Positions 1,660-58,091 of a DNA stretch of 64,000 nucleotides are shown here, one piece after another; positions within the stretch are counted from its first letter, which is position 1; each line of letters begins with the position of its first letter. This DNA comes from Escherichia coli (lineage in GTDB: Bacteria > Pseudomonadota > Gammaproteobacteria > Enterobacterales > Enterobacteriaceae). Location of the stretch: NCBI RefSeq assembly GCF_041886205.1, contig NZ_CP169029.1; one strand, written 5' to 3'. Under the pieces are notes generated by a model. The model made no database searches. It worked only from the letters and a program-made list of their open reading frames with translations, and was not told the DNA's origin. The position numbers and the translations under genes were made by a program.

Positions 1660-2922
1660 TTAAAACTCTTTTCGCAGCCAACTATTGAGTCGCTTGATCC
1701 ACGAGCCAACTGATGCTGTAACACGTTTTTCTACTTCAGCTTCACCGTTAAGATGTGACTCTTTCCCGTAATGAAGCAATCCCACCGCCGTCGAATAATA
1801 CGGCTCCTGAGCATAATCCGTTAAACCGGTAATGTTCAGTGGCGCGCCGATACGCACCTGCGTATGAAACACGCGCTGAGCACAGGCTGCAAGACCTTCA
1901 ATCTGCGCTGCGCCACCGGTTAATACAATGCCTGCCGCCAGGTGATGTTTAACCCCTTGTTGGCGAAGCTTTTCCTGCAACTGCAATATCTCTTCGTTGA
2001 CCAGGTTGAGCAGCTCGGTATAGCGCGGCTCGATCACCTCTGCCAGGGTCTGACGTTGCAGACTCCGCGGCGGACGACCGCCTACGCTCGGCACTTCCAC
2101 GCTCTCATCTTTTCCAACGATGGAACCCAGCGCACAACCGTGGCGAACTTTAATCGCTTCGGCGTCGCTTGGCGGCGTGCCAAAGGCGTAAGCGATATCA
2201 CTGGTCACGACATTGCCAGCATAAGGAATTACCTTAGTGTGGCGCAATGCCCCACCGGTATAAACGGCGATATCCATTGTACCACCACCGATATCGACGA
2301 CGCAGACACCCAGTTCACGTTCATCTTCCGTCAATACCGAATAACTTGATGCCAGACCGGCAAATATCAGTTGGTCAACTTTCAGCCCACAACGTTCAAC
2401 CGCTTTGACGATGTTTTTCGCCATATCGTTGTGGCATGTGATCAGGTGCACTTTTGCCTGCATCCGCACGCCCGAAAGTCCTACCGGATTCTTGATCCCT
2501 TCCTGATAGTCAATCGCATACTCTTGCGGGATCACATGCAGCACACGATGCTCATCGCGCACACGCACCGATTTCGCGGTATGGACGACGTTTTCCACAT
2601 CTTCTTGCGTTACTTCTTCTTCAGAAATAGGCACCATACCAATTTCATTCTGGCAGCTGATGTGCTTACCAGAAAGCGCCAGATATACCGAAGAGATCTG
2701 ACAATCTGCCATCAATTCTGCCTGGTCAATGGCGCGTTGTACGCACTTGACCACGGATTCGAGGTCGTTCACCCCGCCTTTATCCATACCACGCGACGGG
2801 CAGCTGCCCACGCCAATGATATTGACCATACCGTCGGGCAGAACTTCCCCTACTAAAGCGGCAACCTTCGCGGTACCAATCTCCAGTCCTACTACCAGTT
2901 TTCTGTCCGTCGCCTTGATCAT
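1660..2922 (-). CDS. ftsA: Cell division protein FtsA (actin-like ATPase, 420 aa)
   Basis: ORF track 420 aa, [20 protein letters not shown]...; conserved dcw order. Confidence 0.96.
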
Positions 2923-3749
2923 TGTTGTTCTGCCTGTGCCTGATTTTGTTGCTGAGTAGATTCCTCTGGCGGCAAGGGCGCCCAGCCTACTGCCGCTCCA
3001 GAGTCATAACGCAAATCAACGTAGCTAATCCGTTTGCCATCGGTTTGCGCCTGCTGCTGTAAAACCGGATAAAGTTCTACAAAGCGAGCCAAACGTTTCA
3101 TCGTATCGCCCCGGCCAAGATTGAGCTTAATATCGTTATTCAGCGTCAACTGCCAGGAACGCCGCGCGGTCATCGCCGCTTCCTTCAGAGTAAATCTGTC
3201 CTTTGCCAGCATCTGCCCCATTTCGCGATAGCCCTGCAACACTTCATTGGCGCTGCCTTCCGGGCCATACAGCATTGGAAGCACCTGCTTGCTGGTGCGA
3301 TCTGGCGGCACGCTAAAGGTGTTTCCTTCCGCGTCTACCATATGTTGATCATTCCACCGCGCAATCGGCACATATTCAACCAGATGAATCTTCAATTCAT
3401 CTGGCCACTGCTTTCTGACGCTCACCTGCTTAATCCACGGCAGGCGTTGTTCTATTTGCGTCTGGATGATGTTGACATCCTGGGTCATAAAGGTACCCGG
3501 CTCACCCAATGCCAGGATCGATTGCCGGATATCGTCATTACGCGTGTAATGGCGTTCACCGGTCAACACCAGCTTTGAGAGCGGCAGGCGTTGCGCATCT
3601 TCCATCCAGCCCAACACGACCCAGCCGCTCACCAACACTGTCGTTAAAACGGTCAGCAGGAAAAGGATCCCCGCCAGACGCGTTCCATTATTGCGGCGAG
3701 AAGAAACCTCTTCTTCGCTGTTTCGCGTGTTCAGAGCAGCCTGCGACAT
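2919..3749 (-). CDS. ftsQ: Cell division protein FtsQ (276 aa)
   Basis: ORF track 276 aa; 4-bp overlap with ftsA start; position in dcw cluster. Confidence 0.95.
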
Positions 3750-3750
3750 A

Positions 3751-6139
<2,389 letters not shown>

Positions 6140-23281: not shown

Positions 23282-23302
23282 GCCAGCACGCAGTCAAACA
23301 AA

Positions 23303-23331
23303 AAACCCGCGCCATTGCGCGGGTTTTTTTA
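23303..23331 (+). terminator. leu attenuator (intrinsic terminator)
   Basis: cccgcgc-cattg-gcgcggg followed by T7 immediately after leuL and before leuA. Confidence 0.88.
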
Positions 23332-55817: not shown

Positions 55818-56666
55818 ATGGCGACATACCTTATTGGCGACGTTCATGGTTGTTACGATGAACTGATCGCATTGCTGCATAAAGTAGAATTTACCCCTGG
55901 GAAAGATACCCTCTGGCTGACGGGCGATCTGGTCGCGCGCGGCCCGGGTTCGCTGGATGTTCTGCGCTATGTGAAATCCTTAGGCGACAGCGTACGTCTG
56001 GTGCTGGGCAATCACGATCTGCATCTGCTGGCGGTATTTGCCGGGATCAGCCGCAATAAACCGAAAGATCGCCTGACACCGCTGCTGGAAGCGCCGGATG
56101 CCGACGAGCTGCTTAACTGGCTGCGTCGCCAGCCTCTGCTGCAAATCGACGAAGAGAAAAAGCTGGTGATGGCCCACGCAGGGATCACGCCGCAGTGGGA
56201 TCTGCAGACCGCCAAAGAGTGCGCGCGCGATGTAGAAGCGGTGCTGTCGAGCGACTCCTATCCCTTCTTCCTTGATGCCATGTACGGCGATATGCCAAAT
56301 AACTGGTCACCGGAATTGCGGGGGCTGGGAAGACTGCGTTTTATCACCAACGCCTTTACCCGTATGCGTTTTTGCTTTCCAAACGGTCAACTGGATATGT
56401 ACAGCAAAGAATCGCCGGAAGAAGCCCCTGCCCCACTGAAACCGTGGTTTGCGATTCCTGGCCCTGTCGCTGAAGAATACAGCATCGCCTTTGGTCACTG
56501 GGCATCGCTGGAAGGCAAAGGTACGCCGGAAGGTATTTACGCGCTGGATACCGGCTGCTGCTGGGGTGGGTCATTAACCTGCCTGCGCTGGGAAGATAAG
56601 CAGTATTTTGTCCAGCCGTCGAACCGGCATAAGGATTTGGGTGAGGGAGAGGCGGTCGCGTCTTAA
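55818..56666 (+). CDS. apaH: Bis(5'-nucleosyl)-tetraphosphatase (symmetrical) ApaH (282 aa here)
   Basis: ORF track 282 aa, [16 protein letters not shown]...; metallophosphatase GDx[14 protein letters not shown] motifs. C-terminus ...[10 protein letters not shown] differs from my recollection of K-12 (...DLGEAAAS). Confidence 0.95.
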
Positions 56667-56690: not shown

Positions 56691-57290
56691 ATGGCTGACT
56701 ATTTTGAAATACGTGCTGATTACAATCAGCACACCATCACGGTTTATCAGGCTTACAATGATGCAATCGCTGACGTCGCCGTACGTAACGGGCGATTTGG
56801 CGCACCTTTTTCATTCAACCGCATGACCTGGATTAAACCCTCTTTTATGTGGATGATGGAGCGTAGCAACTGGGGACTGAAAAAAGATCAACAACACATT
56901 CTCGCAATCCGAATCAAACGCACCTTCTTTGATACATTGCTGGAACAAGCGGTGCTAACCACGCCGGAAGCCCATGTGTATCCACATGCAGGCATTTGGG
57001 AAACGTTATTTGCACAAGCAAATGTGTATGTTCAGTGGGATCCCGAACGCAGTATAAATGGTAAAAAACTGGAGCACCGATCATTACAGCTTGGTATTTC
57101 CCGTAACTTGATCAGTCAATTTAACGAAGACGCCATTGTTGCCATTGATGATCTGACTCCGCTGGTGCGAAAGTGTCATAACCTTTTGATAAACGGTAAA
57201 ACAACACAGGCGAAATCCTTCCTGCCGCCAGAAAAAATTTACCCTGTTAGTGCAGCTGCGAGAAAGGCTTTGGGAATGAAAAATTCCTGA
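56691..57290 (+). CDS. Hypothetical protein (199 aa), first gene of the apaH–folA insertion; possibly DUF4291-like
   Basis: ORF track 199 aa; strong GGGAGG Shine-Dalgarno 7 nt before the ATG; low GC (~40-45%); TWIKPSFMWMMERSNWG motif. DUF assignment is from memory only and is low confidence. Confidence 0.8.
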   Translation: MADYFEIRADYNQHTITVYQAYNDAIADVAVRNGRFGAPFSFNRMTWIKPSFMWMMERSNWGLKKDQQHILAIRIKRTFFDTLLEQAVLTTPEAHVYPHAGIWETLFAQANVYVQWDPERSINGKKLEHRSLQLGISRNLISQFNEDAIVAIDDLTPLVRKCHNLLINGKTTQAKSFLPPEKIYPVSAAARKALGMKNS

Positions 57291-57325
57291 GACAAATACG
57301 CGCCTATTAAGCGGAAAATATTTAA

Positions 57326-57775
57326 GTGCGACAAATCAACACCGGGCTTAATACCAGAGAAATTATTCTGGAAATGATTGACGAAGCAGATGCCCCCCCA
57401 TTTGCTGAGCAGCGGACCTGGCATCGCAGGCGAATCGCTTTTCTATGTGATTGCATCAGCGTTGCTGTCGACTACGGCTTCTTCTGTTCTGTTTCTCAGC
57501 AGTCAATAATGAACATAACCAGGATGGCTGAAGATGTATGGATAATAGAAAGTAAAATGACACAACTCATTGATATCTGGCAACAACTTCAGCGGCTTTA
57601 TCCGCCAAACATTATTCCCTGCACCCAGCAGTTACCCGCTAAAGAATTGCTTGAACTGCTACTTTCCAGTCCTGACGATCTTCGAATAGTTGAAATCCCT
57701 GACATCATCGGTGATGTTTTTGATGACCAAACCTGGATTCGATTATTCAAAAAACACTTTGCTGATATTATCTAA
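57326..57775 (+). CDS. Hypothetical protein (149 aa from GTG 57326, or 133 aa from ATG 57374), second gene of the apaH–folA insertion
   Basis: ORF track 149 aa; co-oriented 35 bp after the first ORF; weak RBS at both candidate starts; acidic, Cys-containing, no recognisable motif. Confidence 0.6.
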   Translation: MRQINTGLNTREIILEMIDEADAPPFAEQRTWHRRRIAFLCDCISVAVDYGFFCSVSQQSIMNITRMAEDVWIIESKMTQLIDIWQQLQRLYPPNIIPCTQQLPAKELLELLLSSPDDLRIVEIPDIIGDVFDDQTWIRLFKKHFADII

Positions 57776-58012
57776 CTACGATGTGATGTGTAACAATCCA
57801 AAATACATCGCCAGACGATAGACCAAAAAGAAAGTATTTAGCAGATACTCAACATTCTGACTTCTGTACAGAAATAGCAGAGTTTAAAAACTTAAAACTT
57901 CCGGTACTCATTAGAGAAACATCCAGTTTCTTCTGCAAATTCATTTAATGCCGAGATGGCATCCTCGTTTACTTCAGTCCACTGTAGAGTAGCTTGAGGA
58001 TTTAGACCTACG

Positions 58013-58045
58013 CAGTGAGCGCGACTCACAAAATCGCGCTCACTG
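58013..58045. other. Perfect 11-bp inverted repeat (stem-loop) about 47 bp downstream of the folA stop
   Basis: cagtgagcgcg-actcacaaaat-cgcgctcactg; no U-tract on either side. K-12 has a REP element in the equivalent position (recollection). Confidence 0.6.
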
Positions 58046-58091
58046 GTAAAATCAGACGTCTTATCGTTCAATTTGTAGTCATGGCAAAAAC

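Follow-up and report, generated by a model that had tools for sequence, protein, structure and literature searches.

A ccdA pseudogene with a derived stem-loop downstream of folA in the variable folA-apaH spacer of Escherichia coli

Introduction

The closest described relatives of the locus analysed here belong to the ccd family of toxin-antitoxin (TA) modules. CcdA of the F plasmid consists of an N-terminal ribbon-helix-helix DNA-binding domain and a C-terminal part that binds the toxin CcdB. In E. coli O157:H7 Sakai, a chromosomal module of this family, ccdAB(O157), forms an islet (ECs_0052 and ECs_0053) that follows folA in the same orientation and separates it from apaH. A survey by Mine et al., said to have appeared in Genetics in 2009 (volume 181, page 1557), reportedly lists in its abstract a class with a ccdA antitoxin remnant and ORFs of unknown function, and a variant with an insertion sequence in the remnant is said to be described there as well. 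Passages of reviews that cite Mine et al. 2009 portray the folA-apaH region as plastic, with defective ccd genes and with a REP in about 50% of the isolates. In K-12 a REP-type palindrome lies in a folA-apaH spacer of 77 bp (PMC3184786).

We describe here a locus in which the slot downstream of folA is occupied by a remnant of ccdA. Slot, orientation and protein family are those of ccdAB(O157), the remnant and CcdA-O157 are 45-52% identical, and apaH ends in the same 282-aa form in both loci. Unlike ccdAB(O157), the locus has neither ccdB nor the 85-nt spacer, it carries a frameshift and a 14-codon deletion, and only here a two-gene DUF4291 cassette lies between the remnant and apaH. Moreover, the sequence is too diverged for a recent derivative of the O157 allele. 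With its C-terminal half, the remnant matches that half of the family profile of F-plasmid CcdA (PF07362) that binds the toxin, but identity to F CcdA is only 22%, the domain for DNA binding is damaged, and operon and toxin are both missing. The K-12 REP is likewise a stable, GC-rich stem-loop tens of nucleotides past the folA stop on the folA transcript; the hairpin described below differs from it in being single-copy and part of a pseudogene, not a dedicated repeat. The remnant class that Mine et al. reportedly defined appears to have an identical architecture, a larger folA-apaH insert with a ccdA remnant and uncharacterised ORFs, and nothing essential differs; the variant with a mobile element inside the remnant, of which we have likewise only the reported description, is matched here by one genome (L022). 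New beyond this class are the exact lesions, the derived hairpin, the synteny of the cassette with Superficieibacter and the fold prediction for DUF4291 (PMC12522546).

Results

Setting and the three states of the folA-apaH spacer

The window is a stretch of 64 kb (64,000 nucleotides). Around the tail, the part of interest here, it contains the following features.

55818-56666, plus strand: apaH, the end of the surA-pdxA-rsmA-apaG-apaH block, all on the plus strand
56691-57290, plus strand: gene of a DUF4291 protein, the first extra gene after apaH
57326-57775, plus strand: gene of a 149-aa hypothetical protein, the second extra gene, with no Pfam, NCBIfam or PADLOC match
57776-58091: the tail, 316 bp between the 149-aa gene and folA
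58092-58571, minus strand: folA, stop codon at 58092-58094; kefC is next, also on the minus strand

The DUF4291 protein family was predicted to adopt an atypical ADP-ribosyltransferase-like fold in a 2025 survey (PMC12522546). The 149-aa gene starts with GTG in E. coli and its product is 149 or 155 aa long, depending on the allele. At 39.6% GC, compared to 52.9% for the whole window, the tail is indeed the AT-rich stretch of about 316 bp that an earlier note on this DNA had described.

Across 5426 complete E. coli genomes the spacer is of the K-12 type with a REP only in 2858 (53%), contains ccdAB-O157 in 2025 (37%) and holds the DUF4291 cassette together with the ccdA remnant tail in 543. These numbers add up to 5426 and, hence, the three states are exhaustive and mutually exclusive in this collection. 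The share of REP-only spacers agrees with the roughly 50% of isolates given in the review passages mentioned above. The 3' end of apaH in the window (56640-56666) encodes a 282-aa form (ending in GGTGAGGGAGAGGCGGTCGCGTCTTAA) that is identical to the one of O157 Sakai, compared to 280 aa in K-12, indicating that the apaH terminus co-varies with the spacer state. In O157 Sakai the apaH 3' end overlaps the ccdB stop.

The tail contains a ccdA pseudogene

Most of the tail is accounted for by a decayed antitoxin gene on the folA strand.

57892-58082, minus strand: ccdA pseudogene, from a presumed ancestral ATG (58082-58080) to a TAA stop (57894-57892), co-directional with folA
57892-58071, minus strand: 59-codon ORF that begins with TTG and to which the CcdA homology maps; not preceded by a Shine-Dalgarno sequence

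The earlier note had called the tail non-coding. This is misleading, since a ccdA pseudogene, which RefSeq annotates as a CDS, can be recognised in 191 of the 316 bp. Its statement that 57776-58091 holds no ORF of at least 60 aa is true, albeit narrowly, and the 60-aa cut-off used in that scan concealed the 59-aa homologue. This ORF matches the Pfam CcdA family PF07362 (E 8.8e-8) at model positions 39-71 of 71, the C-terminal half. In BLASTP it aligns with CcdA of O157:H7 Sakai (ECs_0052) at 45% identity (E 2e-18) with one 14-residue gap, and the homology is also recovered by tblastn (E 3.7e-16). After repair of a frameshift of 1 nt, the remnant aligns end to end with five intact CcdAs (MAFFT), with 52% identity to CcdA-O157; its last 77 nt are 80.5% identical to O157 ccdA on the DNA level. 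By homology, the remnant is thus a member of the CcdA antitoxin family (PF07362). The 59-aa ORF passes none of the NCBIfam models, PADLOC and PHROGs searches returned nothing useful, and its matches among PDB sequences, all designed repeat proteins, are spurious.

RefSeq lists the CDS under the tail as "type II toxin-antitoxin system CcdA family antitoxin" in 543 of the 5426 complete E. coli genomes, so that the identity of the remnant as a ccdA antitoxin is already known. Strain 6EVA, whose tail is 100% identical, is among these genomes. CDS calls by PGAP are either 59 or 45 aa long. The earlier note had offered the tail as the possible remnant of a lost third gene. It is a gene remnant, but of a separate TA relic and not of a third cassette gene. 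The history of this ccdA lineage is untraceable, because neither 5.8 billion clustered proteins nor 1.84 billion representatives contain a closer intact relative; the best intact one is about 50% identical.

Lesions and ongoing decay

Two lesions inside the gene can be placed exactly.

58068-58082, minus strand: original-frame stub ATG ACT ACA AAT TGA (MTTN followed by the stop; MTAK... in CcdA-O157), out of frame with the rest of the gene
57982-57987, minus strand: junction (about 57984/57985) of an in-frame deletion of 14 codons, flanked by Leu29 and Gln30 of the 59-aa ORF

The stub thus points to a 1-nt frameshift near codon 4, past which the homology goes on in another frame, from the overlapping TTG at 58071. 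The 14-residue gap is the sole gap in the alignment of the repaired remnant with intact CcdAs, and according to the alignments with the five intact proteins it removes helix alpha-2 of the ribbon-helix-helix DNA-binding domain. The beta-strand residues of this domain are unconserved in the remnant (DKTSDFTS vs QSVTVTV). We assembled a set of 14 distinct allele sequences from E. coli, E. albertii, Escherichia sp. 93.0816, a plasmid copy and metagenome contigs. All 14 carry the frameshift stub and the deletion, and these lesions are common to E. coli, E. albertii and a cryptic Escherichia clade, which argues that the decay is old. In five of the 14 (L002, L021, L024, L027 and L029) the ancestral ATG has additionally changed to AGG.

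Control region and toxin gene are gone as well. Only 9 nt separate the folA stop from the ancestral ATG, compared to a spacer of 85 nt in Sakai, which presumably holds the ccd promoter and operator, and no promoter-like site is found on the minus strand upstream of the remnant. We discounted a plus-strand promoter-like site at 58025-58052 that overlaps the hairpin (9/12 match), as the region holds four such sites against 1.9 expected by chance. Searches of the folA-apaH interval with CcdB of F and O157 (tblastn) gave noise only (E >= 0.47), and a three-sequence CcdB HMM scored -0.6 bits on the translated frames of 57740-57900, where 68 of 200 shuffles were as good. No annotated CcdB is present in any of the island-type genomes inspected. 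The string AISVQKSE in the frame of the mini-ORF described below was considered for its resemblance to the CcdB motif FVDVQSDI and rejected, given that tblastn and the CcdB HMM with shuffled controls yielded nothing. The locus thus has no downstream ccdB, no intact ribbon-helix-helix domain and no promoter and operator of its own. Nor does it have a complete ORF (about 72-78 codons) with a start and a ribosome-binding site that could be used; the reading frame stops after four codons and continues from a TTG that is not preceded by a Shine-Dalgarno sequence.

Decay has not come to an end. Damaged alleles circulate in the protein databases: P0011 is frameshifted into the mini-ORF frame, P0014 is reduced to 33 aa, and P0012 and P0013 are fused to foreign sequence. 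In the P0013 strain (L022, GCA_036602385.1, positions 1-125) a repeat of at least 125 nt interrupts the remnant at about 58000. This repeat is shared by 2237 of the 5426 genomes, which have a median of five and at most 27 copies of it, is unannotated in RefSeq and is probably a small non-autonomous mobile element. Among O157-type CcdAs, P0136 has lost the same helix-2 region (MTAK...DAGLN-TRWREEN...) through an internal deletion of independent origin, and metagenome contig L017 (2501-3483) carries two ccdA genes, with no CcdB call in the 5 kb inspected. It therefore happens repeatedly that a ccdA gene is orphaned or damaged.

What is left at the locus is an orphan ccdA pseudogene and 116 nt of spacer; ccdB is wholly lost, and the antitoxin gene has suffered a frameshift, deletion of helix alpha-2 and loss of the promoter/operator spacer. 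We consider it very likely that the tail is the relic of a ccdAB-type TA module that once lay directly downstream of folA. Such a relic would no longer act as an addiction module, and any transcript of it would be folA mRNA that extends into the tail at its 3' end and is not translated there.

A derived stem-loop past the folA stop

The hairpin lies inside the remnant.

58013-58045, minus strand: stem-loop in which two perfectly matching 12-nt arms (58013-58024 and 58034-58045) enclose a loop of 9 nt, at codons TSERDFVSRAHC of the remnant

A perfect 11-bp stem-loop had been reported here by the earlier note. Its position and perfection were confirmed, but the arms measure 12 bp; the distance to the folA stop, given as about 47 bp, is 46 nt, and the place is about that of the REP-type palindrome in the 77-bp spacer of K-12 (PMC3184786), as had been pointed out. 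Eight of the 12 pairs in the stem arm (CAGTGAGCGCGA) are G-C. On folA-sense RNA the predicted fold comprises about 18 pairs (about 58009-58049) with a dG of -28.6 kcal/mol and a z-score of -7.15, and none of 200 shuffles folded as well. By a simple calculation (64000 x about 40 loop sizes x 4^-12), about 0.15 perfect hairpins with arms of at least 12 nt and a loop are expected by chance, and the window contains only one other. The latter, at 23300-23329, is a perfect 13-bp hairpin (AAAAAACCCGCGC/GCGCGGGTTTTTT) and a textbook bidirectional intrinsic terminator. We rejected the idea that the hairpin is a repeated motif or protein-binding box, because within the window the arm sequence is present only at its own two arms. 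Rfam 15 returned two sub-threshold chance matches for 57200-58700, both outside the tail.

Intact ccdA genes have no comparable structure at the homologous position (z -0.6 to -1.1), indicating that the hairpin is derived and arose in the remnant. Its full 12-bp perfection is confined to the rare allele of the window; all other alleles have a T at 58015. The stem stays strong in the alleles compared: the majority allele has a dG of -26.3 kcal/mol, L003 one of -20.9 and E. albertii one of -21.8, so that all other lineages keep it at -20.9 to -26.3 kcal/mol.

This strength and persistence raise the possibility that the stem-loop is a selected functional element of the folA 3' end, a terminator or mRNA stabiliser that replaces the REP of K-12; the earlier note had likewise suggested a folA 3' stabiliser or terminator. 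Such a function would be compatible with the pseudogene identity and add a claim to it. Several observations are in line with it: the structure lies at about the REP position, left arm and loop are nearly invariant across the alleles, the hairpin has no counterpart in intact ccdA, and the commonest arm change, C to T at 58015, preserves pairing through a G.U pair on folA-sense RNA only. However, the GC-rich stem-loop of an intrinsic terminator is present but not its U-tract; the stem is followed by CGTAGGTCTAAATCC on the minus strand and GTAAAATCAGACG on the plus strand, and a terminator scan makes no call. Nor is it a REP by consensus or copy number, as it has no similarity to the K-12 REP sequence and the tail occurs at a median of one place per genome. 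Arm changes that are uncompensated and weaken the stem have been kept at 58020 in L003, at 58013 in E. albertii and at 58025 in L027 and L029, the hairpin region varies at four of 41 sites, no less than the remainder of the remnant, and in L022 the inserted repeat parts much of the tail from folA. Furthermore, in the ccdAB-O157 genomes, 37% of the collection, the first 85 nt past folA show no significant fold (z -0.9), and folA therefore does not need such an element. Thus, a role of the predicted hairpin at the 3' end of folA mRNA is plausible, but we regard a selected one as doubtful, if possible. For the relic favored here, we propose a passive part: any folA read-through transcript would contain the stem, which might physically hinder 3' exonucleases, and the stem-loop that arose in the relic would act as a passive barrier to these enzymes, as REP may do in K-12-type strains.

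Variation in the tail

Variable sites were counted per segment in the 14 distinct sequences.

ccdA remnant: 21 of 191 sites variable; 5, 7 and 7 at codon positions 1, 2 and 3
Block B: 11 of 116 sites variable; codon positions not applicable
folA: 71 of 480 sites variable; 7, 2 and 62 at codon positions 1, 2 and 3
DUF4291: 73 of 600 sites variable; 19, 10 and 44 at codon positions 1, 2 and 3
149-aa gene: 76 of 451 sites variable; 19, 18 and 39 at codon positions 1, 2 and 3

The flat spread over the codon positions of the remnant suggests the absence of constraint on the protein level. The 59-codon ORF has a pN/pS (Nei-Gojobori) of about 0.37, and of about 0.28 in the C-terminal, toxin-binding half, but only some 18 substitution events enter these values, which would be compatible with weak protein-level constraint as well as with neutrality.

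About 11% of the sites in the tail are variable, compared to 22-39% at third codon positions of the neighbouring genes, i.e. half to a third. A freely decaying pseudogene should vary more, and this counts against plain decay. The low variability and the survival of the hairpin in E. coli, E. albertii and the cryptic clade would both be explained if the pseudogene had been exapted, with the stem-loop and perhaps the whole tail being selected as an element that forms or stabilises the 3' end of the essential folA mRNA in place of REP. We consider such an exaptation unlikely. Maps of pairwise differences show mosaic tracts (L003 and L011 have only three differences in 57821-58124 and dense ones on either side), and recombination thus accounts for part of the low diversity of the tail. 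For the relic, recombination through the flanking core genes probably keeps the locus in this state or exchanges the state between genomes.

Mosaicism is also seen on a smaller scale. L009 and L011 are nearly identical in apaH (6/849 differences), DUF4291 (4/600), the ccdA remnant (0/191) and folA (6/480), and diverge in the 149-aa gene (27/451) and block B (5/116; window 57326-57900), pointing to a short recombination tract and to mosaicism below the gene level inside the island.

Could the ORF still be of use as a protein? A truncated CcdA might work as an orphan antitoxin that protects the host from plasmid-borne CcdB (anti-addiction). The half that is left matches profile positions 39-71, the part with which CcdA of the F plasmid binds the toxin. 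In none of the 14 alleles is the frame interrupted, pN/pS is about 0.28 in this half, and an orphan ccdA not accompanied by ccdB is known from L017. Against this stand the TTG start with no Shine-Dalgarno sequence, the missing promoter spacer and the split of the annotators over 59 or 45 aa. The flat codon-position variability, the small number of events behind the pN/pS value, the many non-conservative changes in the binding half (G50E, C51F/Y and R57W among them), the frameshifted, truncated and interrupted alleles in circulation and the destroyed autoregulatory DNA-binding domain speak in the same direction. From the sequence comparison, a working antitoxin appears improbable.

The tail is independent of the DUF4291 cassette

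Essentially the same genomes harbor tail and cassette (543 and 542 of 5426, respectively), and block B directly adjoins the second cassette gene, so that the tail might be read as a part of the cassette, be it a regulatory region at the 3' end or what is left of a third gene. However, Superficieibacter electus has apaH, DUF4291 (81% identical), a 218-aa partner (48% identical, E 8e-42), PRiA4_ORF3 and folA at the same site, and neither ccdA nor block B is detectable there, although apaH and folA are 89-92% identical. Listeria costaricensis has DUF4291 alone. The folA-proximal slot therefore varies independently of the cassette. Moreover, the remnant is convergent to the cassette, co-directional with folA and homologous to the ccdA that occupies the same slot in O157-type strains. 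This reading is very improbable and largely refuted, and the proposal that the tail carries regulatory elements of the cassette, which exists in Superficieibacter and Listeria with no such tail, was not borne out. The two-gene cassette of Superficieibacter lies at L007 4001-5457, and its 218-aa partner gene product has an additional N-terminal Cys-rich CxxC...CxxC segment that is missing from the E. coli gene.

Block B and the mini-ORF

Two further features lie at the far end of the tail.

57776-57891, no strand assigned: block B, a 116-nt spacer from the stop of the remnant to the stop of the convergent 149-aa gene
57849-57944, minus strand: mini-ORF of 31 codons, overlapping the ccdA 3' end out of frame and running into block B

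Block B has no significant structure in folA sense (z -0.3 on the minus strand, -2.1 on the plus strand), no Rfam match, no trace of ccdB and no coding potential. A 20-mer from its core is absent from about 100,000 species-representative genomes. With five to seven sequences block B had looked strongly constrained (3-6/116 variable sites vs 20/191 in the remnant); this near-invariance vanished with 14 sequences (11/116 vs 21/191) and was thus a small-sample effect. We regard block B as leftover spacer between convergent genes.

The mini-ORF exists with the translation given in the earlier note and, as stated there, has no credible ribosome-binding site, a Shine-Dalgarno sequence being absent upstream. 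Its frame is the one reached by the frameshifted ccdA allele P0011. Although its ATG and open frame are present in the alleles examined, it matches no family, overlaps ccdA out of frame and changes as often non-synonymously as synonymously (L to Q, L to S, D to N and S to N among others), so that a small protein has next to nothing in its favor and the mini-ORF is an artefact, not a credible gene.

Copies on plasmids

Part of the locus is also found on plasmids. On pPK5074-69kb (L021, NZ_CP072804.1) the stretch 2748-5863 comprises the 3' part of the 149-aa gene, block B, the ccdA remnant and folA. The same segment, an additional plasmid-borne copy of chromosomal folA, is bracketed by IS1 and IS26 next to blaTEM-1 on E. 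coli resistance plasmids (L021 and L020; hit H66). Another plasmid has a shorter relic that is cut by IS26 and adjoins aac(3)-IVa and aph(4)-Ia.

Discussion

We show here that the folA-apaH spacer is found in exactly three states across 5426 complete E. coli genomes. Otherwise, the value of the analysis is mostly a correct annotation of the tail. The remnant is a clean example of the decay of a chromosomal TA module, in which the toxin was lost first and the regulatory domain and the start of the antitoxin gene thereafter. If the hairpin shapes the folA 3' end, the locus would in addition be a small case of a pseudogene that is recycled as a UTR element of an essential gene whose product is an antibiotic target.
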